In this document: positions 3,984 through 29,134 of the stretch, piece after piece
Layout of the letters: every line of letters begins with the position of its first letter
Numbering within the stretch: the stretch's first letter is position 1
From: a virus
DNA: 64,000 nt
Virus record (IMG/VR): IMGVR_UViG_2918493637_000007
Reading direction: 5' to 3' (one strand)
The notes under the pieces: generated by a model
Databases searched by the model: none
Told to the model about the DNA's origin: nothing
The model's input: only the letters and a program-made list of their open reading frames with translations
Position numbers and translations under genes: made by a program

Positions 3984-4010
3984 TTATAGCGATCACCTGT
4001 TGGGTTTTTC
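3984..4010 (-). promoter_or_regulatory. Phage-specific promoter-like motif upstream of SSB
   Basis: Minus strand GAAAAACCCAAC-AGGTGATCG-CTATAA; same 9-nt spacing as four other copies. Confidence 0.65.
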
Positions 4011-5044: not shown

Positions 5045-5070
5045 TTATAGCGAGCGCGCGTCGGGTTTTG
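5045..5070 (-). promoter_or_regulatory. Phage-specific promoter-like motif
   Basis: Minus strand CAAAACCCGAC-GCGCGCTCG-CTATAA, followed by the operator at 5024-5039. Confidence 0.7.
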
Positions 5071-5584: not shown

Positions 5585-8500
5585 TCAGTCGCTCATGAGG
5601 GCGGCGGCCACCTCGAACACCTCGTTGAGCTTCGCCTGCTTGGAGGCGTCGTGGAAGATCTCGCCCGGGGCGAAGCCGATCACGAGATTGGCGTCGAGGC
5701 CCTTGTGGTAGACGACCTCGCCGGCGACCTCGGACGCCTTGCCCTTGAAGTCGGGGATGAACTGCCGGACCGTGGTCGAGCCGAGCAGCACGATCACCGG
5801 CGGCTTGAGGATCTCGATCTCGCGGGCGAGGTAGGGCCCGTAGGTGGCGATCTCGCTGGCCGAGACCTGCTTGCCGGCCTTGGGCCGCTTGATGAGGGCG
5901 GTCCAGTAGGCGTCGGCCCGCGACAGGTCGTTGGCGTCGAGCGCCTCCTGGACCCACTCGCTGACGCAGTAGGAGCCGCGGTTGTCGTAGCTCATGCGGC
6001 CGGAGGTGTCCTCGCCCTTCGAGGGCGCGTCGAGGATCACCATGAAGCGCATGTTCTTGCCCGTGGTCATCTTCACCGGCATGCCGTCCTCGGCGCAGCC
6101 GTCCGAGTAGTCGGCGAACACCTCCAGGATCTTGATCCGGCTGTCCCGGTCGCGGTGCATCTCGCGGCTGATCGGGACGTGGGCCGTGATGAGCCCCGGG
6201 ATCAGCTCGCGCTGGTCCTTGATCCGGTCCGGGTGGCGTCGAGGTAGCTGGCCTGGCTCGATGTCGGCGAAGGCGCCGACCAGGTCGAGGAGCCCGACGT
6301 GCTTGACGTTGCAGCGCCGCCGCTCGACGCGGGCGGTCAGGTCCTCCTTCGACTTGAACGGGCCGGCCCCGTCGCCCCGCGCCTTCAGGATGGCCTCGGT
6401 GGTCAGCGCCGAAATGCCCTTGATCCGGTTGAACGGCATGCACAGCCGCGTGTCGGTCACGATCTCGAACTGGTTGGTCGAGTGGTTGATGTCGGGCAGA
6501 TCCACCTCGATCCCCATCCGCTCGGCGTCCTTCATCAGGCCCGGCAGCTTGTCCTGGGGCATCAGGGTGAGCGCCGCCGCGAAGAACTCCACCGGGTAGT
6601 GGGTCTTGAGATACATCGCCTGGTAGGAGATCAGCGTGTATTCGACCGAGTGGCTCTTGTTGAAGCCGTAGCCGGCGAAGCCCTCGATCTTGTCGAACAG
6701 CAGACCGGCCCACTCGGGCGTGCAGTCCACGGTCGCGACACAGCCCTCGACGAACTTGCCGCGCTCCTTCTTCATCTCCTCGGGGAGCTTCTTACCCATG
6801 ATCTTGCGGAGCTTGTCGGCCTGCGCGCCTGAGTAGCCGGCGATCACCTGAGAGGCCTTCATGACCTGCTCCTGGTAGACGAACACGCCGTAGGTCGGGC
6901 TGAGCACCGGCTCGAGGAGCGGGTGGTCATAGTCCACGCTCTCGATGCCCTGCTTGCGCTTCCAGTAGCTGTCCATCATGCCCGACTCCATCGGGCCCGG
7001 GCGGTAGAGCGCGGTCGCGGCCGTGATGTCGTCGAAGGTGATGGTGCCGTCCTTGCCCAGCTCCTTGAGCAGGCGCCGCATGCCGCCGCCCTCGAACTGG
7101 AAGATGCCCGTGGAGATCGCGCGGGCGAAGTTGTCGAGCACCTTCGGCTCGTCGAGCGGGATCCGCAGTAGGTCGACCTTCTTGCCGCGCCGCTTGCGGA
7201 TGTAGTCGAGGGTGAGCGCGATCAGGTCCAGGGTGTTGAGGCCCAGGATGTCCATCTTCACCAGGCCCTGGTCCTCGACGATGCGCTTGTCCCAGCACAC
7301 CACCGGCAGATCCGGGACCGGCTCCTCGCCCTCCTTCGGCTTCGAGGGCGCCTTGCGCCGCTCGATGACGGCCCGCTCGACCAGATCGACGCCGCCGACG
7401 ACGACGCCGGCCGCGTGCTGCGAGAGGTTGCGCAGGCAGCCTTCGAGCTTCTTGGCCGTGTCCCAGATCTCGGGGTTGCCGGCCGCGAACGCGCCGATCT
7501 CCGTCACCTCTGCGGCGGCCTCGGCGAGCTTGACCGGCTGGCCGTGCTTCTTCGGCACGAACTTGGAGCAGCGATAGAGCTCCTCGTTGAGGCCGAACAC
7601 GCGGCTCACGTCCCGGATCGCCGAGCTGGCGCCCAGGCGCCCGTAGTTCGAGACGCCGGCCACGCGGGCGGTGCCATACTTGCGGATGAGATACTGGAAC
7701 ACCTCGTGCCGGCGCTCGGACATGAAGTCGAGGTCGGCGTCGGGAAGGTCGATACGCTCGGGGTTGATGAAGCGCTCGAACAGGAGCTCGAAGCGGAGCG
7801 GATCGCAGTCGGTGATCCCCATCAGGTAGGCGACGAGCGAGCCGCCCACGGAGCCGCGGCCGGGGCCGACCAGGATCCCCTGGCTCTTGGCCCACACGAC
7901 CACGTCCTGCACCAGGAGGAAGTAGCCCGAGAAGCTGAGGTTCTTGAGCACGGTCAGCTCGTAGCGCAGCCGCGGCTGGTAGACGTCCTTGAGCTCCTGG
8001 TTCGACGGGCGGTGCCCGAACACCGGGGCGGTGAAGCGCTCGTGCCAGCCCTTGGTGCAGGCCTCGACGACCGCCTTGAACTCGTCGGGCGCCATGATCG
8101 GCAGCGAGGGCGCGGACTTGGCCCAGGCGAAGGTGACCATGTCGACGAGGCGCGCGGTGTTCTTCATGCCCTCGGAGAAGCGCCCCTTGGTCGGCACGCC
8201 CCGGAACTCCTCGAGCCGCTTGGCGGCCGCCTTCACGTCGCGCACCAACTCCTGCAGGGTCTTCGGATGCAGGTCGCGCACCGGGTTGAACCACGCCCAG
8301 GGCTCGGTGAGCTTCACGTTGCGGGTGACGGCGTTCATGATGTCGGCCGCGTCGGCGCTGCCCTCCTCGTAGAGGGCGGGCGCGGCGACCAGCGTCGGCA
8401 GGCCGAGCTCCTCGGCGAGCTGGAGCGCCTTGACGTTCTGGGTGTCCCAGTAGGGCGTGTCGATCGGCACCAGCGTGCAGAACGTATTAGACGCGCTCAG

Positions 8501-8992
8501 AGCGTCGGAAATCTTCGTGAGTATCTGTGACGCTGACTTGTGCGCGACGACGCTGTGCGCGTCGCTCGTCGCGATTGCGACGTCTGCCGCAGTCACGTTC
8601 GCAAGCTCTGCATAGAGATCGTCGAAGGAGAGCTTGGCGTTGTTGTAGAAGCGCTCCTCGGAGTTGGCGAGCGACAGCAGGCGGTAGAGCGCCATCAGCC
8701 CGGCCTGGGAGAGAACATACCAGGTCACGAAGAACTCCGGCGGCGCCTTCTTGTCCTCCTTGGTCTTGCGCCAGGTGACGTCGTCCACGAGCCGGAGCCG
8801 GCAGCCGATGACGGGCTTGATCCCGGCCTTCTGCGCCTTCTGGGTCAGCTCGATCAGACTGGTCGCCGACATGGTGTCCGTCACGCCGACGGCCTTGGCG
8901 CCGGCTCCAACGGCCCGGTCCACGAGGCTCTCGATCGACAAGATGCTCTCGCCGATCGAAAAATTGGTGCGAGCCGCTAGGACCGCGTGCAT
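5585..8992 (-). CDS. dnaE: DNA polymerase III alpha (family C) with degenerate PHP and C-terminal UDG-family-4-like domain
   Basis: ATG at 8992 with GGAG RBS; [49 protein letters not shown]; C-terminal [25 protein letters not shown]. Confidence 0.95.
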
Positions 8993-9471
8993 GGAGATCT
9001 CCGGTTGTTGGCTTGAACTTTTCGGGTGGCCCAGACGCAGTTGCCTGGCTCGTAGGGGCCGTCGTTGTTCTTCCGCTCGATCGTCAGATTGCGCGGGCGC
9101 TCGCCCATGTCGGCGAGGAAATTCTCGAAGGTCTTCCAGTGCTCGCACACGGTGATCCCGCGGGCGCCGTAATCCTTGTAGGACTCGTTGTTCGGGTTCG
9201 TCGTCCGCTGGATCATGTTGGACCAGCAGACGTAGGTGGGTGAGCGCTTGCTGTGCCCGTGCCGGATGGAGCGGGCGCTCGTCGCTTCGTTCTTGGCGCA
9301 GCCGCAGGACGACGTGTGACCGGACTGGAGATCCCGTCCGGCCGCCCTTGCTGAGCCGCCGCAGGTGCAAAGGCACCTCCAAGCGGCGTTGCCACCCATG
9401 ACGCCGTCGCGCGCCTCTACCGTGAGGCGCCCGAAGGTCTGGCCCGTGAGATCGACCAGCCGGCCCATCAT
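8977..9471 (-). CDS. HNH endonuclease (DLTGQxFGRLTV family)
   Basis: [17 protein letters not shown]...WRCLCTCG...TSSCGC...[12 protein letters not shown]...[20 protein letters not shown]. Confidence 0.88.
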
Positions 9472-10016: not shown

Positions 10017-10643
10017 TCAGCGAAGGATCTGCCGCGCGAGGCCTTTGACCTCGCCGTAGATGCGGTTGCGTTCGACCCGGTCCGCACCCATCAGGTCGAG
10101 GACGAGCGAGCCGGTGATGTGGCTGGGCACGCCGGTGCGGATCCCGCGGGCGTTGGCGAACTCGGCCCGGGCCTGGATCGCGGTCATCTCCTCGTAGAGC
10201 GCCGGAGGCGGGTTCGCGAGGAGCTCGACGAACTGGCGCGCCTCGGGGGAGAGGAGGGCGATGTTGCGCTCGAACTCCTGGGCGTCGCCGAGCACGTCGT
10301 CCTGGAGCGGGCTGCCGTCGGCGATCACCTCGTGCAGGTCGGAGCCGTCCTCGTCGCCGTGATCCTCGTCGAGGTCGAGGGCGTTGGAGTGGCCGATCTG
10401 CCGGTCGATCCAGGCGTTGATGTGGTTGCGCATGCCGAGCTGGAGGTAGGCCCCGAACGGCACGCCCTTGGTCGGGTCGAACTTGTCCCGGGCGATCACC
10501 CAGGCGAGCGACAGCTCCGAGACCAAGTCGGCCAGGAGCACGGTGCGCGCGCCGGCCGCGTGCGCCCGCTTCAGGTAGCGGTAGGCGGACCGCTCGACGA
10601 CCTTGCTCCAGTCGCCCCATTGGATCGGGTGGGTGTCGCGCAT
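10017..10643 (-). CDS. Phage-encoded sigma70-family factor (region 2 recognisable)
   Basis: DLVSELSLAWVIARDKFDPTKGVPFGAYLQLGMRNHINAWI matches the sigma70 region 2.2-2.4 pattern (DLxQE...AxxKFDPxxGxxFxTYA..WIR..I); LLSPEARQFVELL resembles the start of region 4. Confidence 0.75.
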   Translation of the reverse strand: MRDTHPIQWGDWSKVVERSAYRYLKRAHAAGARTVLLADLVSELSLAWVIARDKFDPTKGVPFGAYLQLGMRNHINAWIDRQIGHSNALDLDEDHGDEDGSDLHEVIADGSPLQDDVLGDAQEFERNIALLSPEARQFVELLANPPPALYEEMTAIQARAEFANARGIRTGVPSHITGSLVLDLMGADRVERNRIYGEVKGLARQILR

Positions 10644-16856: not shown

Positions 16857-17987
16857 GTGGAGACGGTTCATTCCGGTGGCCGGCCGCTCACGCGCGCCGC
16901 GCTCGCCGGTCGGAGACGTGCGCTCGAGGACGGGCGAACGATCTCCCGCAAGGAGCTCGCGGCCGCCGGCCGGGATGCGGCCAAGGCCTTGCGCCTGCGC
17001 CCTGCCCTGCGCGCGATCCTGTCGGCGCTCTGTGCCGTGTGGGGCGAGCAGGAGTGGGAGCGCCTGGTGGTGTGGCCCTCGAACGAGCACCTGTGCGGGA
17101 TGACAGGCCTGTCCGAGCGCGCGCTGCGCTACGGGCTGCGCGACCTGGTCGCCCTGGAGCTCGTCACGCCCCGCGACAGCGCGAACGGGAAGCGCTTCGC
17201 TGTGCGCGCCCCGGGTGGGGCGATCATCGACGCTTTCGGGTTCGACCTGACCCCGATCGTGGCGCGAAAGGGCGAATGGGCGAATGCTCTCATGGAAGCG
17301 ACCGTGAGAGATGACCACCGGCGGCGTTCGTTCGAGATTTTGACCGTCCGACGCCGGGCGGTGGCCGAGGCGCTCCACGGGCTTCTAATGCGATTTCCTC
17401 AGATTGAGGTCTCCGATCTGCTCGCGGCGCGCGAGTCCCTGGAGTTCGACACACCCAGGCGGCGAGCGGCCGGCACCGACCCGGACCTGGTGCTCGAGGC
17501 CTGGGGAGAGCTGCAGGTCATGGCAGAGGAACGCTTCTATCAAGCCGCCTCTGCCGGCAATTCCGGCCGGCACATAGAACAAGACCCCGATGCTCCTACC
17601 GATCCTTGTGCAAACGGCTCTCAAGAGGAGCCTGGGCCGATCCGTCTGCCCGACGCCGAGCTCGTCGCGGCCGCCTGCCCTGTCGCGGCCGAGATGGTTG
17701 CGAATCTCAAGACCGCGGCGGACGTCATCGAGGCCGGGCGCCTGATGCGGGGCGGGATCGGGGCGCACCCGTCGGCCTGGTCGGAGGCGTGCGAATCTCT
17801 CGGCGCGTTCCGCGCCGCCTGCCTGGTGCTGATCGTCGCCCAGCTCCACGACGACGAGACGCGCCGCGGTGAGATTCGCATCAAGAACCCGGGCGGCTAC
17901 TTCCGGCAGCTCGTGCGTTTAGCCGTAAACGGTCGCTACGGGCTCGAGGCCGAGCTCATGGCGATGCGTCGCAGGAAAATGACTTGA
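16857..17987 (+). CDS. repC: Plasmid replication initiator RepC (repABC family)
   Basis: GGRPLT N-terminus, VWPSNEHL, RDSANGKRF, FGFDLTPI, C-terminal IKNPGGYFRQL. Confidence 0.92.
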   Translation: METVHSGGRPLTRAALAGRRRALEDGRTISRKELAAAGRDAAKALRLRPALRAILSALCAVWGEQEWERLVVWPSNEHLCGMTGLSERALRYGLRDLVALELVTPRDSANGKRFAVRAPGGAIIDAFGFDLTPIVARKGEWANALMEATVRDDHRRRSFEILTVRRRAVAEALHGLLMRFPQIEVSDLLAARESLEFDTPRRRAAGTDPDLVLEAWGELQVMAEERFYQAASAGNSGRHIEQDPDAPTDPCANGSQEEPGPIRLPDAELVAAACPVAAEMVANLKTAADVIEAGRLMRGGIGAHPSAWSEACESLGAFRAACLVLIVAQLHDDETRRGEIRIKNPGGYFRQLVRLAVNGRYGLEAELMAMRRRKMT

Positions 17988-23577: not shown

Positions 23578-23619
23578 GGCTCCTCTCTGCTGTGCGTGTG
23601 TCTGTGTCTCGCTCGCTGA

Positions 23620-23645
23620 CTATAGCGAGCGTGCGTCGGTGTTTC
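23620..23645 (-). promoter_or_regulatory. Phage-specific promoter-like motif upstream of the WGR-ligase operon
   Basis: Minus strand GAAACACCGAC-GCACGCTCG-CTATAG, adjacent to the operator at 23646-23661. Confidence 0.7.
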
Positions 23646-23667
23646 GTGTCACCACTGACTTATTGCG

Positions 23668-24801
23668 TCAGGCAGTGAGCGGCGCCTTCGCCCGGCGCAG
23701 CGCCGTGTAGGGGTTGCGCAGGCGCCATTCGACGGCCAGCCGCGGGCTGTATTCCTGGGCCTGCCAGAGCGCCTTGCGCACGACCTCGGGCTTGGCCTCG
23801 TTCGGGTCCTGGTCGAGCGGCAGCAGGGCGATGCGGGCCTTCAGCCCGATCTTGCGGATCGACTCGGCCGCCTTCACCGCGGCGGCGAGCGCGTCGGGCG
23901 TCCCGTCCCAGCAGATGATGACCTCCTGGAGCCCGTAGCCCTTGAGCACGAGGAGCTGACCGAGCTGGTCGCGGCCCTCGAGATCGCCGGTCGACAGGTG
24001 CTTGCCGAAGGAGCCGACCGGGACGATGTCGCGCAGCTCGCTCTCACCGTCGATCGCCGCCTTGAGCGAGAACACGTCGAAGGCGCCCTCCCCCATCGCG
24101 ATCCGGCGCGCCCGCACGGCGTTGTGGCCGTTGTAGAGGAAGCGACCGGTGCCGGGCAGCGCGGGCGGGAACAGGTATTTCGCGTCCTGGTCGCCGATGA
24201 TGTCCCGGCCCTGGAAGGTCACGAGCTTGCCGTCGAGGTCGTAGACCGGGATCAGCAGCCGCTGCTCCCACTTCTGGCCGCCCCGGCTGCCGTCGTCCTT
24301 CGTCCAGTTCCACCAGCCGCTGTCGCAGTAGCGCAGCCGGAAGTAGGCCGCGAGCTCCACGCCGATCCCGCGGCTCTCGAGGTATTTCAGGTTCTGGCCG
24401 TCAGCCGTCGGCAGCGCGAAGCTGTCGGGGAGCTTGATCTCGTCGGGCACCTCGACGGCGGCCGTGATCGTGCGCTTCGGGCGCCAGCCCTGCTCCACGC
24501 AGGCCGCCTTGACGTGCTTGAGGGTCTCGCCCCACTTCTTCGCGTCCTTGTCGCCGTGCAGGAAGGCGTTGACGAAGGACAGCTTGTTGAAGCGGGTCTC
24601 GCACACGAAGCAGTTGCCGATCCCGGACTCGGCGTTGAGGTAGACCCGGTAGCGCCCGTCCCGGCAGTGGTCCTGCGGGCAGTCCTTCACGTTGATCTGC
24701 ATGCCCGACGAGCCGCGCGTGGGCCCCTTGTAGGCCAGGCCCTCGCGGTCGAACCACTGCTCCAGGTCGAGCTCCTCGGACAGCTCCTGAAAATCGCTCA
24801 C
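23668..24801 (-). CDS. dnaG: DNA primase (Zn-binding + TOPRIM)
   Basis: GTG at 24801 overlapping the upstream TGA; CPQDHC...GNCFVC; LLIPVYDLDGKLVTFQGR; MGEGAFD; CWDGTPDA. Confidence 0.85.
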   Translation of the reverse strand: MSDFQELSEELDLEQWFDREGLAYKGPTRGSSGMQINVKDCPQDHCRDGRYRVYLNAESGIGNCFVCETRFNKLSFVNAFLHGDKDAKKWGETLKHVKAACVEQGWRPKRTITAAVEVPDEIKLPDSFALPTADGQNLKYLESRGIGVELAAYFRLRYCDSGWWNWTKDDGSRGGQKWEQRLLIPVYDLDGKLVTFQGRDIIGDQDAKYLFPPALPGTGRFLYNGHNAVRARRIAMGEGAFDVFSLKAAIDGESELRDIVPVGSFGKHLSTGDLEGRDQLGQLLVLKGYGLQEVIICWDGTPDALAAAVKAAESIRKIGLKARIALLPLDQDPNEAKPEVVRKALWQAQEYSPRLAVEWRLRNPYTALRRAKAPLTA

Positions 24802-25019
24802 GGGCGCCTCCAGCCGAGGGACTCGAGGGTCTCGCGCACGGTCCGGGCCTGCTCGAGGAAGCGCCGGCCCGTGACCTTCGGATCCTCGAGCACGCAGTCC
24901 CACTGGAAGTTGGCGTTGCGCGCCAGCACGCGCGCCGCGCCGATGTCCTCGTCGGTGAACCCGTCGAGCTGCTGCTCCAGCGGGTAGCCCATGCAGTCCT
25001 TGCCCGAGCGGTCGATCAT
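24798..25019 (-). CDS. Hypothetical protein
   Basis: 73-aa ORF with overlapping start/stop junctions. Confidence 0.6.
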   Translation of the reverse strand: MIDRSGKDCMGYPLEQQLDGFTDEDIGAARVLARNANFQWDCVLEDPKVTGRRFLEQARTVRETLESLGWRRP

Positions 25020-25210
25020 GCGGTGCCTCGGATCTCGCCGCGCGTGGCCGCCTGGATCGCGTGCGCGTCGCTGCCGGAGGCCAGGATCCAGGCCCGGATG
25101 AAGGAGCTGGCCCAGATGTCGGCCGGGTAGCGGACCTCGACCTCGAGCACCTGGATCGGCGGCAGCCAGAACCGGCGCCGCTCGACGAACCTGAAACGAC
25201 CCGTCCTCAT
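25016..25210 (-). CDS. Hypothetical protein
   Basis: ATG at 25210 (MRTGRFRFVERRRFW...), GGAGG RBS, ATGA-type overlaps on both sides. Confidence 0.55.
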   Translation of the reverse strand: MRTGRFRFVERRRFWLPPIQVLEVEVRYPADIWASSFIRAWILASGSDAHAIQAATRGEIRGTA

Positions 25211-25521
25211 GCCGCCCTCCTCTCGTCCTCGTCGTTGAGCTCGATCGCCACGCAGCGCGGCTCCATCACCACCTCGACGGCGTAGCGGCCGGCGATCCGG
25301 GCCGGCGCCAGGATCTCGACCACGTAGTCGAAGGCGTCCCAGCTCTCGGGATCGTTCTCGACGTTGGCCTCGATCAGCATCTCGGCGACGTCGGACCCGC
25401 GCACGAACTCGGGCAGATCCACCTCGGCCTGGCTCTCGTAGGGCTCGGGCGGCTGGTAGCGCCGGTCCATCTTGATCTTCTGGCGCGGGCATTCGCGCCA
25501 GAGCACGGTGATCTTGGCCAT
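25207..25521 (-). CDS. Hypothetical protein
   Basis: 104-aa ORF overlapping the dnaB stop. Confidence 0.6.
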   Translation of the reverse strand: MAKITVLWRECPRQKIKMDRRYQPPEPYESQAEVDLPEFVRGSDVAEMLIEANVENDPESWDAFDYVVEILAPARIAGRYAVEVVMEPRCVAIELNDEDERRAA

Positions 25522-26879
25522 CAGCGGCTCACCCCCAGGACCTTCGAGAGGAACTTCATGCGGGCCCGGTCCTGCTGGATGCGGATCACGACGCCCTCTT
25601 CGCCGTTGCGGTGCGCGACGAACTCGATGCGGGCTTCCGAGACCTGCTTCTCCTCGGACGTCGCCGAGATCGCGATCACCACGTCGGCGATGCGGATCTT
25701 GTTGAAGTCCTCGGCCACGTCGGTCGCCTTGACGCTGGTCGCCTTGGCGCCGTCGCGGTTCGTCTGCGTGGCCGTGAGCACCGCGGCGTTCTGCTCGAAG
25801 GCGATCGCGCGCAGATCGACCCAGATCGACTTGCTCTCCTGGATCGGATTGTCGTTGCGGTGCTCCGCGGCCATGATGTCCGCGTAGTCGACGATGATGA
25901 GGTCGAAGATGACCCCGCGCGCCCGGTAGCGCTCGATCAGCCGCCGGAGCTGGCTGCCCTTCATCGTCCCCGTCGGGAACTCGTGGATGTAGAACTGGCC
26001 CGACTTCTTGGCCGCGAGCTCGACGGCCTCCTGCACCTTGAACGGGTTGTCGTTAAGGCCCTTCATCAGGGTGTCCGACACGTTCGCGTCGAGACGATCC
26101 GCGATGATGCGCGAGGCGACCTCGAGGGAGACGTAGAGGACGTTGAAGCCGGCGAAGGCCGCATACTTGCCGAAGTCGGCCAAGCCCATCGACTTGCCGC
26201 CCTTGGCCGGCGCCATCAGCGCCGAGAGCTCCTTGCGGCCCCAGCCCTTGTGGTAGAGGAGGTCGTCGATCTCCTTGATGCCGGTGGTGATGCCGTCGGG
26301 CTTGTAGAGCCCGGCCGCGATCATCTTGCGCCGCTCGGTGCGCTCCTGGATGTGGTCGAAGTAGTTGATGCCGCTGGCGTCGTCGGCCACGCCCACGAGC
26401 TGCGCCGCCGAGATGCGCTGGGCGATCTTGGCGAAGTCGCCCCGGTCGAGGTCCCCGACCGAGGCCAGGATCGCCTCCTCCAGCGCCCGGTGCTTGGCGA
26501 AGCTCGCGACCTCGTCGACCACGAAATCGCGGTCCGAGATGTCGGCGGTGAGGAGTTCCTTCACCTTCTCCTTGACATCGGCGACCATGTCCTTGCGGAT
26601 GGTCTTGTTCGCGATGCCATTGGCGATGAGCCTGACAAGTGTGACCTTGTCGGGCAGCATCTTATACTTGGCGAAGTATTCCCCGGTCAGCTTGACCAGG
26701 ACGGCTTCGGACTCGTTGACGAAGTAGAAGGGCTGGATCAGCCCGTCCGTGCGCTGCGCGAAGACCGGGTCGCGCACCTGGAGCGCGGCGACCTTGCTCT
26801 GAAACTCGGCGTCGAACTGGAAGGCGCCCGGGTTCGCGGGGACCGCGTCGTCTTCCTCGACCGTGACGTACGCGGTCAT
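25521..26879 (-). CDS. dnaB: Replicative DNA helicase (DnaB-like)
   Basis: ITTGIKEIDDL, APAKGGKS (Walker A), LYVSLEV, LIIVDYADI, LTATQTNR, AEDFNKIRIAD. Confidence 0.92.
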   Translation of the reverse strand: MTAYVTVEEDDAVPANPGAFQFDAEFQSKVAALQVRDPVFAQRTDGLIQPFYFVNESEAVLVKLTGEYFAKYKMLPDKVTLVRLIANGIANKTIRKDMVADVKEKVKELLTADISDRDFVVDEVASFAKHRALEEAILASVGDLDRGDFAKIAQRISAAQLVGVADDASGINYFDHIQERTERRKMIAAGLYKPDGITTGIKEIDDLLYHKGWGRKELSALMAPAKGGKSMGLADFGKYAAFAGFNVLYVSLEVASRIIADRLDANVSDTLMKGLNDNPFKVQEAVELAAKKSGQFYIHEFPTGTMKGSQLRRLIERYRARGVIFDLIIVDYADIMAAEHRNDNPIQESKSIWVDLRAIAFEQNAAVLTATQTNRDGAKATSVKATDVAEDFNKIRIADVVIAISATSEEKQVSEARIEFVAHRNGEEGVVIRIQQDRARMKFLSKVLGVSR

Positions 26880-26882
26880 GGA

Positions 26883-27143
26883 TCAGGCCTCGAGGATTTC
26901 GTAGCCCGTCAGGTTGCCCTTAAAGTAAGTCATCGCTGACTGATCTCCGCGGGCGACCTTGATGGTGAACTGGTCGGCGGCGACGAGCCGCCCGGTCCGG
27001 GTGGTCGCGCCGAAATGCACGGTGATCTGCCGGCCGATCGCCGCCTTCAGGTCGTCCTGGTGGTTCCAGGTGCGCGGCTTCATCGGCTGCCGAGGCGCGC
27101 TCGGACCACGACGCTCGATCACGGGGCGGGTCTGGGGCTTCAT
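26883..27143 (-). CDS. Hfq/Sm-fold-like small protein
   Basis: QDDLKAAIGRQITVHF...TGRLVAADQFTIKV...SAMTYFKGNL aligns by eye with the Hfq Sm1 (G.I..FDQF.I) and Sm2 (MVYKHAI) motifs. Confidence 0.6.
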   Translation of the reverse strand: MKPQTRPVIERRGPSAPRQPMKPRTWNHQDDLKAAIGRQITVHFGATTRTGRLVAADQFTIKVARGDQSAMTYFKGNLTGYEILEA

Positions 27144-27182
27144 CTCGCGTTCTCTCGCTCGTGTTGTGTTGCGTCGCGTCGT

Positions 27183-27208
27183 CTATAGCGAGCGCAGGTC
27201 GGGGTTTC
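27183..27208 (-). promoter_or_regulatory. Phage-specific promoter-like motif upstream of the Hfq-like/dnaB/primase operon
   Basis: Minus strand GAAACCCCGAC-CTGCGCTCG-CTATAG. Confidence 0.7.
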
Positions 27209-27931
27209 TCAGCGGACGTCGTCGATCCGCGACATCACCACATCGCCCCAGCGCGCCCGGGCCTTCTCCTCCGGGAGCACCTGCTCGTCGTAGATCAGGC
27301 CCTTGAGGGCGTGGACGATGTTGGAGCGCTTCGACACCTGGGCGAGCAGCCACTCGTGGTGCGCGTCCTGGATCGGCGAGGCCTGGTAGCGCTCGTTCTT
27401 GAAGCGCTCGTCCTTGGCCACGTAGAGGATGCCGCTCTGCCGGTCGGTCCAGGTGTCGGACACGGCCGTGAGCAGGTCGAAGTTGTAGAGGTGCGTCGGC
27501 CGCGGCAGGTATTCCTTGCGGCACTTGCGCAGGGACCAGTGCATGGCGATGCCGATGTAGAGGTCGTAGGGCATGCACAGCCCGTCGGCCATCTGGCGCG
27601 CCTTCCACAGTCCGGCCCGGTCGGTGTTGCGCTTGGCCAGGTCGAACGGATCCTCGGCCTTGATCCCCTTCACGTAGTCGGCCTTGGCCCGGTCGAAGGT
27701 CGAGGCATACATCTGCCGGTAGACCCGGCGGTAGGCGTCCGTGAACAGGTAGGTCGCGTGGACCGGGTGCATGAAGCGGTAGTCGAACCACTTCGAGGCC
27801 ATGAGCCAGCGCTCGGGCTCGACCCACTCGTCGGGCAGCGCGTGCATGATGTCGTGGCAGGCCTCGAGGGGGAGGTCCGTCCCGAAGACGTGTCTCTCCC
27901 CCTCCCCTGCCGTGTCCTGTCCCGGTGTCAT
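27209..27931 (-). CDS. Hypothetical phage replication-region protein
   Basis: 240-aa ORF with GC3-rich coding bias, between phoH and dnaB. Confidence 0.75.
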   Translation of the reverse strand: MTPGQDTAGEGERHVFGTDLPLEACHDIMHALPDEWVEPERWLMASKWFDYRFMHPVHATYLFTDAYRRVYRQMYASTFDRAKADYVKGIKAEDPFDLAKRNTDRAGLWKARQMADGLCMPYDLYIGIAMHWSLRKCRKEYLPRPTHLYNFDLLTAVSDTWTDRQSGILYVAKDERFKNERYQASPIQDAHHEWLLAQVSKRSNIVHALKGLIYDEQVLPEEKARARWGDVVMSRIDDVR

Positions 27932-27985
27932 CGTCGACCTTCGCGTGAGCTGCCCGAGGCCGGGCGCGTTGCTGTGCTGCTCACG

Positions 27986-28011
27986 CTATAGTCGCGCAGC
28001 GTCGGGTCTTC
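27986..28011 (-). promoter_or_regulatory. Phage-specific promoter-like motif
   Basis: Minus strand GAAGACCCGAC-GCTGCGCGA-CTATAG. Confidence 0.65.
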
Positions 28012-28015
28012 TGAC

Positions 28016-28858
28016 CTAGACCTCGGCGCCGATGAAGCGCCGCAGGCCGGCGTGGTCGGGCTCGTCGTCGTTGACCGGCTCGACGGCCACGGGCGTCTCG
28101 TAGGCCTCCAGCACGTCCTGGCAGAAGCCCGAGCGCACGACGTCCTCGCGGCCGAACCGGATGATCCCGACGCTGCGCACGCGCTCCAGGCGCGAGACGG
28201 CGTCCATGAGCCCCGACGGGCCCGGGATGTCCTTCTGGGCCGGGTCGCCGTTGACCACCACGCGGGTGTTCTCGCCGATGCGGGTGAGGAACATCTTCAT
28301 CTGGCCGGGCGTGGTGTTCTGCGCCTCGTCGAGCAGCACGTCGGCGTCCTTGAGCGTGGAGCCGCGCAGCAGCGCCAGCGGGCGCGCCTCGATCCGCCCT
28401 TCCTTGATGAGGTATTCGGTGAAGCCCTTGCCCAGGACGTCCTCGAACGCCTCGCGCACCGGCCGGAAGTAGGGCTCGAACTTCTCGTCCAGCTCGCCGG
28501 GCAGGAAGCCGAGGCTCTCGCCGGCCTCGACCGCGGGCCGGGTGATGACCACCCGCTCGATCTCGCCGTCGCGCAGGCGCTCGGCCATGCGGGCGGCGGC
28601 GAACCAGGTCTTGCCGGTGCCGGCCGAGCCCAGGGCGATCGTGAGCGTGTTGGAGCTCATCGAGACGTCGAAGCGCGCCTGGGCGGCGTTGAGCGGCTTT
28701 ACGGGCGCCTGCCGGGGCTTGGCCGGCGCCTGCGGGCGCCGGTTCTCGGCGACGAGTTGAAGGAGCGGACCGTGCTGAGTGCCCTTCCCCTGACGCTTGG
28801 CGTCGCGGCGCTGCTTACGGCGGATCGCCTTCTCGGCGGTGTTGGTCGCGGTGCTCAT
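28016..28858 (-). CDS. phoH: PhoH-family ATPase
   Basis: ATG at 28858; LGSAGTGKT, ITRPAVEAGESLGFLPG, LRGSTL, DEAQN, GDPAQKD, EDVVRS. Confidence 0.93.
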   Translation of the reverse strand: MSTATNTAEKAIRRKQRRDAKRQGKGTQHGPLLQLVAENRRPQAPAKPRQAPVKPLNAAQARFDVSMSSNTLTIALGSAGTGKTWFAAARMAERLRDGEIERVVITRPAVEAGESLGFLPGELDEKFEPYFRPVREAFEDVLGKGFTEYLIKEGRIEARPLALLRGSTLKDADVLLDEAQNTTPGQMKMFLTRIGENTRVVVNGDPAQKDIPGPSGLMDAVSRLERVRSVGIIRFGREDVVRSGFCQDVLEAYETPVAVEPVNDDEPDHAGLRRFIGAEV

Positions 28859-28933
28859 GTCGACTCCAGGGTCGGTGGGGAAAGAGAGCGAGCGCACATA
28901 AGTAAGCACTGACTTACTTCAGGACGCAAGCGG

Positions 28934-29134
28934 TCATTCGGCCAGGAGCGCGATCTCCTGGGTGGCCGTCAGTGCGAGCGTCTGCCCGGGCAGGACCCGC
29001 AGCTCGGAGTCGAAGCCGTGGATGATGAGCAGGCCGCCGTCGGTGCTCCGGGCGTAGTTGCGGAACACGAGCCAGGCCGGCCACGCCGACGGGGGCTGCC
29101 CCGTGTAGCGGAAGCTGTCGATGATCCGGCGCAT
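28934..29134 (-). CDS. Hypothetical protein
   Basis: 66-aa ORF overlapping the upstream stop. Confidence 0.5.
   Translation of the reverse strand: MRRIIDSFRYTGQPPSAWPAWLVFRNYARSTDGGLLIIHGFDSELRVLPGQTLALTATQEIALLAE

Follow-up and report, generated by a model that had tools for sequence, protein, structure and literature searches.

A highly diverged Hfq-like protein gene coupled to dnaB in a Methylobacterium phage(-plasmid)

The window analyzed here, a stretch of 64,000 nucleotides, is phage-type DNA with approximately 68% G+C and almost all of its genes on the minus strand, and the DNA that hosts the gene of interest is a ~115-kb Methylobacterium phage(-plasmid). A small ORF lies there among genes for replication proteins, which follow one another in the order of transcription as a PhoH-like ATPase, a phrog_2500 protein, the Hfq-like protein, a DnaB-like helicase, two small ORFs, a primase and then WGR and an ATP-dependent ligase (Table 1). 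This ORF is a genuine, conserved gene, and its product has an Hfq-type Sm fold.

Table 1. The Hfq-like gene, its parts and its neighbors in the window.
Feature	Position	Strand	Basis and remarks
PhoH-like ATPase, second neighbor upstream	28016..28909	-	PF02562 E 3.5e-68; syntenic wherever related loci reach
phrog_2500 protein, 240 aa, upstream neighbor	27209..27931	-	phrog_2500 E 1e-52
Promoter-like motif GAAACCCCGAC-N5-CTCGCTATA	27184..27208	-	immediately past the phrog_2500 stop; 45 nt ahead of the ATG
Hfq-like (Sm-fold) protein gene	26883..27143	-	86 codons + TGA; ORF, translation, relatives, dN/dS; Hfq matched by profile, fold and structure
Basic Pro/Arg/Lys-rich N-terminal arm, residues 1-25	27069..27143	-	pLDDT 61-70, no secondary structure predicted
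Sm core, residues 26-86	26886..27068	-	AF2 pLDDT >90, conservation table, Hfq alignments
Coupling junction: GAGG in codons 85-86, TGA, 3-nt spacer, dnaB ATG	26877..26891	-	sequence
DnaB-like replicative helicase	25521..26879	-	PF03796 E 3.6e-16, phrog_19 E 2e-73
DnaG-type primase, last large gene of the unit	23668..24903	-	PF08275/Toprim, phrog_47; CTCGCTATA motif after its stop

The Hfq-like gene and dnaB are closely joined. The Shine-Dalgarno sequence of dnaB, GAGG, lies within the last codons (85-86) of the Hfq-like gene, and in the related loci compared (14/14) the dnaB start falls between -4 and +6 nt from the Hfq-like stop, with TAATG, TGATG and ATGA overlaps. The order PhoH/phrog_2500/Hfq-like/DnaB/primase is found in 14 of 14 related loci as well as in three distant metagenomic members and in Pseudomonas phage nickie. 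An earlier reading of the DNA from its sequence alone (the sequence-only reading) had placed the gene at the head of a helicase-primase operon, and this placement holds, with a promoter-like motif 45 nt upstream and the dnaB ATG 3 nt past the stop. As judged from its sequence, GAAACCCCGAC-N5-CTCGCTATA is a candidate promoter of the helicase-primase unit; five relatives have its CTCGCTATA part unchanged ahead of the Hfq-like gene. Further copies of the composite motif lie on the coding strand at 23621-23629 (past the primase stop), 5046-5054 and 3985-3993 (one mismatch). In the form GAAA(C/A)CCCGAC-N5-6-(C)TCGCTATA, it precedes several minus-strand transcription units, and it is a candidate phage promoter, possibly for the phage sigma-like protein encoded at 10017-10643 (Sigma70_r2 only).

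The immediate upstream neighbor, the phrog_2500 protein, was examined as a possible initiator or nuclease, either of which would have defined the role of the module, and was modeled by AlphaFold2 (AF2) as all-alpha (pLDDT 89, pTM 0.85). This model had no fold match in the PDB, and its relatives in AFDB were only those of its own uncharacterized family. The phrog_2500 gene always lies between that for PhoH and either the Hfq-like gene or dnaB, also in phages that lack the Hfq-like gene. Elsewhere in the window, a DnaE-type polymerase (5585-9382, minus strand) combines PHP, pol3 alpha, finger and HhH domains with a C-terminal UDG-superfamily domain (PF03167, E 4.6e-8). A freshwater metatranscriptome contains an 11.3-kb contig that is ~90% identical across 23600-29000, although such contigs cannot reveal transcription, ends or levels. 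This contig skips 218 nt at 24792-25011, and thus the small ORF at 24798-25019 seems to be absent from that relative. Other RNA-library runs yielded scattered pieces.

Relatives of the Hfq-like protein, collected by an exhaustive HMMER search, form 171 clusters at 50% identity with lengths of 75-120 aa, and both length and architecture are kept across these clusters. IMG/VR holds 13 loci with the gene, 8 of which are on contigs of 106-118 kb, and the gene is single-copy wherever it is present. The lineage that carries it consists of ~110-120-kb phages or phage-plasmids, comprising Methylobacterium elements, the Pseudomonas Nickievirus and many metagenomic relatives. In the nearest genome, on a related 116.7-kb contig, the gene order around the Hfq-like gene is the same as in the window, and a 'hypothetical protein' of Methylobacterium sp. 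B34 falls in the same 90%-identity protein cluster as the Hfq-like protein. For one NCBI member of this cluster, the annotation gives a length of 66 aa, with the internal ATG at 27083 (Met21) as the start. We favor the 86-aa form because residues 1-20 are conserved at the protein level across the family. Searches of deposited phages with megablast (4 kb) and tblastn (protein) returned no match for the locus. The family is too diverged for single-sequence searches; the orthologue in phage nickie was found only via the helicase, the family profile and the fold. A pattern scan of reference genome contigs gave no confirmed relative.

The likeness of this protein to Hfq exceeds chance. As a single sequence, it had no meaningful match in Pfam, PHROGs or NCBIfam, did not match the Hfq family model at E up to 1, and gave no BLASTP alignment to host-type Hfq. 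When the PDB was searched with a profile of 149 family members (hmmsearch), the best matches were the Hfq proteins of Listeria (E 1.3e-4) and S. aureus (3.3e-4), followed by Aquifex and B. subtilis Hfq and then by M. jannaschii Hfq-like and Lsm proteins. Hfq chains were matched at E values of 1.3e-4 to 3.4e-3, the first ~40 matches were all Hfq/Sm, and the only other folds among the 50 matches listed were a few bL25 chains at E >1. An hhalign comparison of the family with 28 proteobacterial Hfq cores gave a probability of 86% and an E value of 5e-6, spanning both Sm1 and Sm2; the use of this 28-sequence alignment raised the probability from the 46% that single-sequence hhalign versus Hfq had given. 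Feature neighbors of the protein in the ESM Atlas carry Hfq_1, Hfq or LSM. Of the 149 family members, 48 gave sub-threshold matches to Pfam Hfq and 49 to LSM. Indeed, the protein and all of its relatives score below the curated Hfq cut-offs of Pfam and NCBIfam: for PF17209, the best family member reached E 3.2e-5 and the nickie orthologue scored 23.4 bits, where the cut-off is 27, and for TIGR02383 the score was 25.6 bits against a cut-off of 61.7. For this reason, we do not file the protein as an Hfq equivalog and assign it instead to a diverged, lineage-specific Hfq-like subfamily.

The predicted structure leads to the same family. The AF2 model, built from the 149-sequence alignment, has a pLDDT of 87.8, with values above 90 in the core, and shows the Sm fold, namely an N-terminal helix (H28-34) followed by a strongly bent five-stranded antiparallel sheet (E39-43, E48-56, E60-64, E71-74 and E80-83). 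A fold search against Hfq had been proposed as a check on the sequence-only reading. In this search (Foldseek, PDB), the best 24 matches were all Hfq, with a probability of 1.00, TM scores by target of 0.65-0.83 and E values of ~2e-3 to 7e-3. The modest E values are expected for a domain of only ~60 residues. VIA-align, which is independent of Foldseek, superimposed the model on SmAP/Hfq chains with Z values of 9.4-10.3 and rmsd values of 1.5-2.3 Å over 57-65 residues; Halobacterium SmAP scored highest (Z 10.3), next to the Hfq proteins of Caulobacter (10.2), Thermotoga (10.1) and Aquifex (9.9), these four at rmsd 1.6-2.3 Å over 60-65 residues. Together, the profile and fold matches bear out the claim of a phage-encoded Hfq/Sm-like protein. 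Within the Sm superfamily, the protein belongs to the Hfq branch, as a highly diverged member specific to this phage lineage.

The peptide that had been aligned by eye with the Hfq core comprises residues 28-83, and that alignment is in accord with those computed by HMMER (family profile against Hfq of Listeria and S. aureus) and by hhalign. The computed alignments place D57-Q58-F59 on Hfq D40-Q41-F42, and Y73-F74-K75-G76-N77-L78 on Hfq V54-Y55-K56-H57-A58-I59. The Sm core thus reads as the invariant W26, H28-Q29, helix 28-34 and five strands, with Sm1 as G51..L53..D57-Q58-F59 and Sm2 as F74-K75-G76-N77-L78. Sm1 had been called retained, and it is (G51 81%, L53 97%, D57 100%, Q58 74% and F/Y59 99%). 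The variant Sm2, YFKGNL, proved to be specific to this clade; the family consensus, YFK[H/S]A[L/I], is closer to the YKHAI of Hfq.

To locate the constrained positions, column conservation was computed on 149 family sequences, down to ~30% identity. Besides the Sm1 positions, the most strongly kept were W26 (100%), H28 (99%), Q29 (94%), L32 (99%), G37 (96%), T60 (84%), F74 (85%) and K75 (100%). The alignments pair Q29, D57-Q58-F59 and K75 with Hfq Q8, D40-Q41-F42 and K56, respectively. Q29 sits within the motif W-S/N-H-Q-D-D/E-L and lies opposite Hfq Q8 in the structural alignment (model 25.. to chain 7..). These Hfq residues build the proximal-face pocket for uridine and RNA 3' ends, as in Hfq-RNA structures such as 1KQ2 and 3RER, both of which were among the matches. 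By alignment, then, the best-conserved residues of the family correspond to the uridine-binding proximal pocket of Hfq. Position 76, which aligns with the Hfq 3'-end contact His57, is His in 47% of the family, Ser in 42% and Gly in 9%, and it is Gly in this clade. The equivalents of the distal-face residues Tyr25, Gly29, Ile30 and Lys31 (positions 43-50) are near-random, at 0.2-1.7 bits. Because the distal (A-rich) face is not conserved, the protein is not expected to pair sRNAs with mRNAs over two faces in the canonical manner of enterobacterial Hfq. Of the rim arginine patch (Hfq Arg16, Arg17 and Arg19), only K/R38 is kept (84%), and basic charge is concentrated in the N-terminal arm.

This arm is 20-30 residues long in the family and stands in for the C-terminal tail of Hfq. 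Its conserved columns are R6, P7, R11, P20, K22 (87%), P23 and K/R24, and they make up the family motif RPxxxERRG ... RxPxKPK, or as a fuller consensus R-P-F-x-V-E-R-[RK]-G ... R-x-P-x-K-P-K-x-W-S-H-Q. The arm ends in the invariant Trp beside the pocket. The N-terminus of Hfq lies on the proximal face, so that in a ring of the phage protein the basic arms would encircle the conserved pockets like a crown.

Among close relatives, dN/dS of the Hfq-like gene was 0.35-0.82, as compared to 0.19-0.38 for dnaB and 0.08-0.27 for the phrog_2500 gene. Since dN/dS is below 1, the gene is coding and constrained, though it evolves faster than its neighbors. Relative to L001, one of the related loci, the Hfq-like protein is 71% identical, DnaB 94% and the phrog_2500 protein 98%, and dS is 0.22 for the Hfq-like gene and 0.10-0.12 for the neighbors. 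In comparisons with the relatives L001-L004, the Hfq-like gene outpaced its neighbors at synonymous and non-synonymous sites alike. The protein changes cluster at positions 39-52 and 63-68 and at the C-terminus, while the N-terminal arm and the motif residues are fixed. This fast divergence hints at local recombination or at diversifying pressure on the part of the protein that corresponds to the distal face.

The gene is missing from some phages that share the rest of the module. The Rhizobium phages RHEph10, B1VFA and V1VFA-S have an orthologous DnaB (48-51% identical), PhoH, phrog_2500 protein and primase. We found no Hfq-like copy in the whole records of RHEph10 and B1VFA at E up to 0.01, and no Hfq-like gene at the syntenic site of V1VFA-S. 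The Hfq-like gene is therefore accessory. The relation of the gene to a plasmid-type initiator was also considered. A full RepC initiator gene (PF03428 + PF11800) lies at 16857-17984 on the opposite, plus strand, amid the phage replication genes. RepC is found as well in RHEph10, B1VFA and two complete 117-118-kb IMG/VR genomes, and is absent from phage nickie; it looks like a feature of the lineage rather than proof of a plasmid lifestyle. A link between the Hfq-like gene and RepC/ctRNA control was rejected, as RepC occurs in Rhizobium phages that lack the Hfq-like gene and is absent from nickie, which has it, so that the presence of the two is uncorrelated. The proposal in the sequence-only reading that the protein might serve, with an aSD-bearing RNA and a ctRNA, an RNA regulation specific to the element found no support; the Hfq-like gene does not track RepC across relatives. 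Likewise, a link to the acidic N-terminal tail of DnaB was dropped after its comparison with the Hfq-like gene gave no consistent pattern.

The interpretation to which we incline, by a slight preference, is that the protein forms a ring that binds U-rich RNA at 3' ends, that it is produced in a fixed ratio with DnaB, and that it acts as the phage's own post-transcriptional factor for early and replication transcripts. The protein would assemble into a ring like other Sm proteins, and the ring would bind single-stranded U-rich RNA, most likely at RNA 3' ends, on its elaborated proximal face, where the six basic arms could add affinity or annealing activity. Its synthesis would take place early in infection or induction, in a constant ratio to that of DnaB, and it may stabilize, anneal or translationally control the phage's early and replication transcripts. 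Several of the observations above do not favor such a role. The strict coupling to dnaB suggests a role in replication no less than one in RNA regulation, the position equivalent to His57 is occupied by Gly in this clade and by Ser in 42% of the family, and the gene is accessory, scores below the curated cut-offs and has a dN/dS above that of the flanking genes.

It is possible, though we consider it unlikely, that the protein is instead a replication accessory factor, an Sm-type ring that works physically with hexameric DnaB and the primase, either as a loader or organizer or by binding ssDNA, RNA primers or an origin R-loop. The gene heads the helicase-primase unit and, in every locus examined, lies directly upstream of dnaB with its stop overlapping or abutting the dnaB start, an arrangement that is typical of helicase partners, for example SPP1 G39P-G40P. 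No other loader candidate was recognized in the module, in which the phrog_2500 protein and orf104 are uncharacterized. Hfq itself binds DNA; PDB 5uk7 was among the fold matches, and the literature search listed PMC7144919. However, a helicase loader should be present wherever its cognate DnaB is, and the three Rhizobium phages have the orthologous PhoH/phrog_2500/DnaB/primase set without the Hfq-like gene, so that the DnaB of this lineage can work without the Hfq-like protein. Moreover, the residues that are kept are those of the uridine pocket of Hfq, the N-terminal tail of DnaB showed no correlation with the gene, and no helicase loader is known to have an Sm fold. A scheme that joins RNA binding to replication, which we rate as rather improbable, would make the Sm/Hfq-type ring a stoichiometric partner of DnaB that binds an RNA 3' end (a primer, or an origin transcript or R-loop) via the uridine pocket and the arms and hands this RNA to the helicase-primase. 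If true, the Hfq-like ring would represent a primosome or helicase-loading component of a new class, in which the recognition of RNA 3' ends is tied to the initiation of replication.

Two further explanations were considered. According to one, the protein is directed against the host: it would compete with or poison host Hfq, either through mixed rings or by tying up host sRNAs or U-tailed transcripts, and would thereby reprogram post-transcriptional control in the host. Since it shares the fold of Hfq and keeps the proximal pocket, it could rival host Hfq for the U-rich 3' ends to which the latter binds; the nearest genome has a single canonical hfq (a PF17209 search found only the chromosomal hfq), and faster evolution would fit a host-interaction surface. 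Nevertheless, we regard this explanation as very improbable. The lack of a BLASTP alignment to host-type Hfq makes it unlikely that mixed rings form via matching beta4-beta5 edges, phages of Methylobacterium and Pseudomonas as well as others have kept the family, nothing links the gene to host genes, and the coupling to the helicase is left unexplained. In particular, the poisoning of host Hfq through mixed hexamers, raised in the sequence-only reading, is unsupported, given the absence of BLASTP similarity and the retention of the family across hosts with different Hfq proteins. According to the other explanation, which we find barely credible, the ORF is decaying or functionless and is kept only as a translational leader that brings ribosomes to dnaB. 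The dN/dS of up to 0.82, the variable middle part, the dispensability of the gene in some relatives and the position of the dnaB Shine-Dalgarno sequence inside its last codons are what such a leader might show. Against this, the residues that define the fold and the pocket vary little or not at all among 149 sequences with identities down to ~30%, the AF2 model is confident, and the relatives keep their length and architecture throughout the 171 clusters.

Many bacteria rely on Hfq as their central RNA matchmaker, and here a whole phage lineage keeps a stripped-down version of it. If the protein binds RNA, it would be a natural minimal Hfq that separates the function of the proximal face from the rest of the protein, and it would offer a handle on how large phages control early and replication gene expression or priming. 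If it works with DnaB instead, it would be a new kind of replication factor. A cultured relative, phage nickie on Pseudomonas syringae, makes the role directly testable. Because the GenBank record of phage Nican01 (PP179318) labels the syntenic gene 'hfq, RNA-binding protein Hfq', the identification as Hfq-like is not wholly new. The J Gen Virol 2024 paper on Nican01 makes no mention of the gene so labeled, and our literature search found no functional study of any phage-encoded Hfq. New here are the extent of the family, the finding that the proximal face is selectively retained, the description of the N-terminal arm, the universal coupling to the helicase and the accessory status of the gene.

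Compared with bacterial Hfq (PF17209 and TIGR02383; structures from Caulobacter, 6GWK, S. aureus, 1KQ1, Listeria, 4NL2, and E. coli, 1HK9), the phage protein has the same Sm fold with its N-terminal helix, Sm1 (G..L/I..D-Q-F), Sm2 (aromatic-K), proximal uridine-pocket residues and small size, and it matches structurally with Z ~10 and rmsd 1.5-1.7 Å. It differs in its sequence, which is only ~12-20% identical, in having Gly for His57, in its unconserved distal-face and most rim residues, and in the 25-residue basic arm with an invariant Trp in place of a C-terminal tail. Its gene also differs in being phage-encoded, accessory and translationally coupled to dnaB. Archaeal SmAP/Lsm proteins, which form rings and bind U-rich RNA, tied with Hfq at the top of the structural comparison (Z 10.3 for Halobacterium 6TFL and 8.7 for the M. 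jannaschii Hfq-like 2QTX), but the family profile favors Hfq (E 1e-4) over Lsm (0.1 or worse), and their Sm2 signature is another one. With regard to the inferred role alone, the protein may be likened to T4 RegA, a small RNA-binding translational repressor encoded inside the phage replication gene cluster and co-expressed with replication proteins; RegA has a different fold and no homology to it.

Extra genes with an Sm/Hfq fold, mostly predicted, also occur on other plasmids and phages. Bacillus anthracis pXO1 carries an Hfq (PMC5348863), a Thermococcus plasmid carries an Hfq-like protein (PMC3543421), and gp39 of mycobacteriophage Adephagia is 'Hfq-like' by fold (PMC11373665). Their lineages and contexts are unrelated to those of the present gene, and none is reported to be coupled to a replicative helicase. 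Among the VIA-align fold matches was PDB 9lu5 (2026), a C6-symmetric complex of host Hfq with gp13/gp14 of the T4 neck; it illustrates that phage assemblies with six-fold symmetry can serve as docking sites for Sm hexamers. The Nickievirus orthologues (nickie gp117, YP_009620715; Nican01_00034) belong to the same family, occupy the same site between the phrog_2500 gene and dnaB and are similar in length. For nickie gp117, membership rests on an hhalign probability of 96% and a BFVD fold match with 32% identity. These orthologues differ from the Methylobacterium protein in being ~30% identical to it, in having an arm motif of their own, and in lying slightly nearer to canonical Hfq (Pfam Hfq E 4e-5, below the cut-off).
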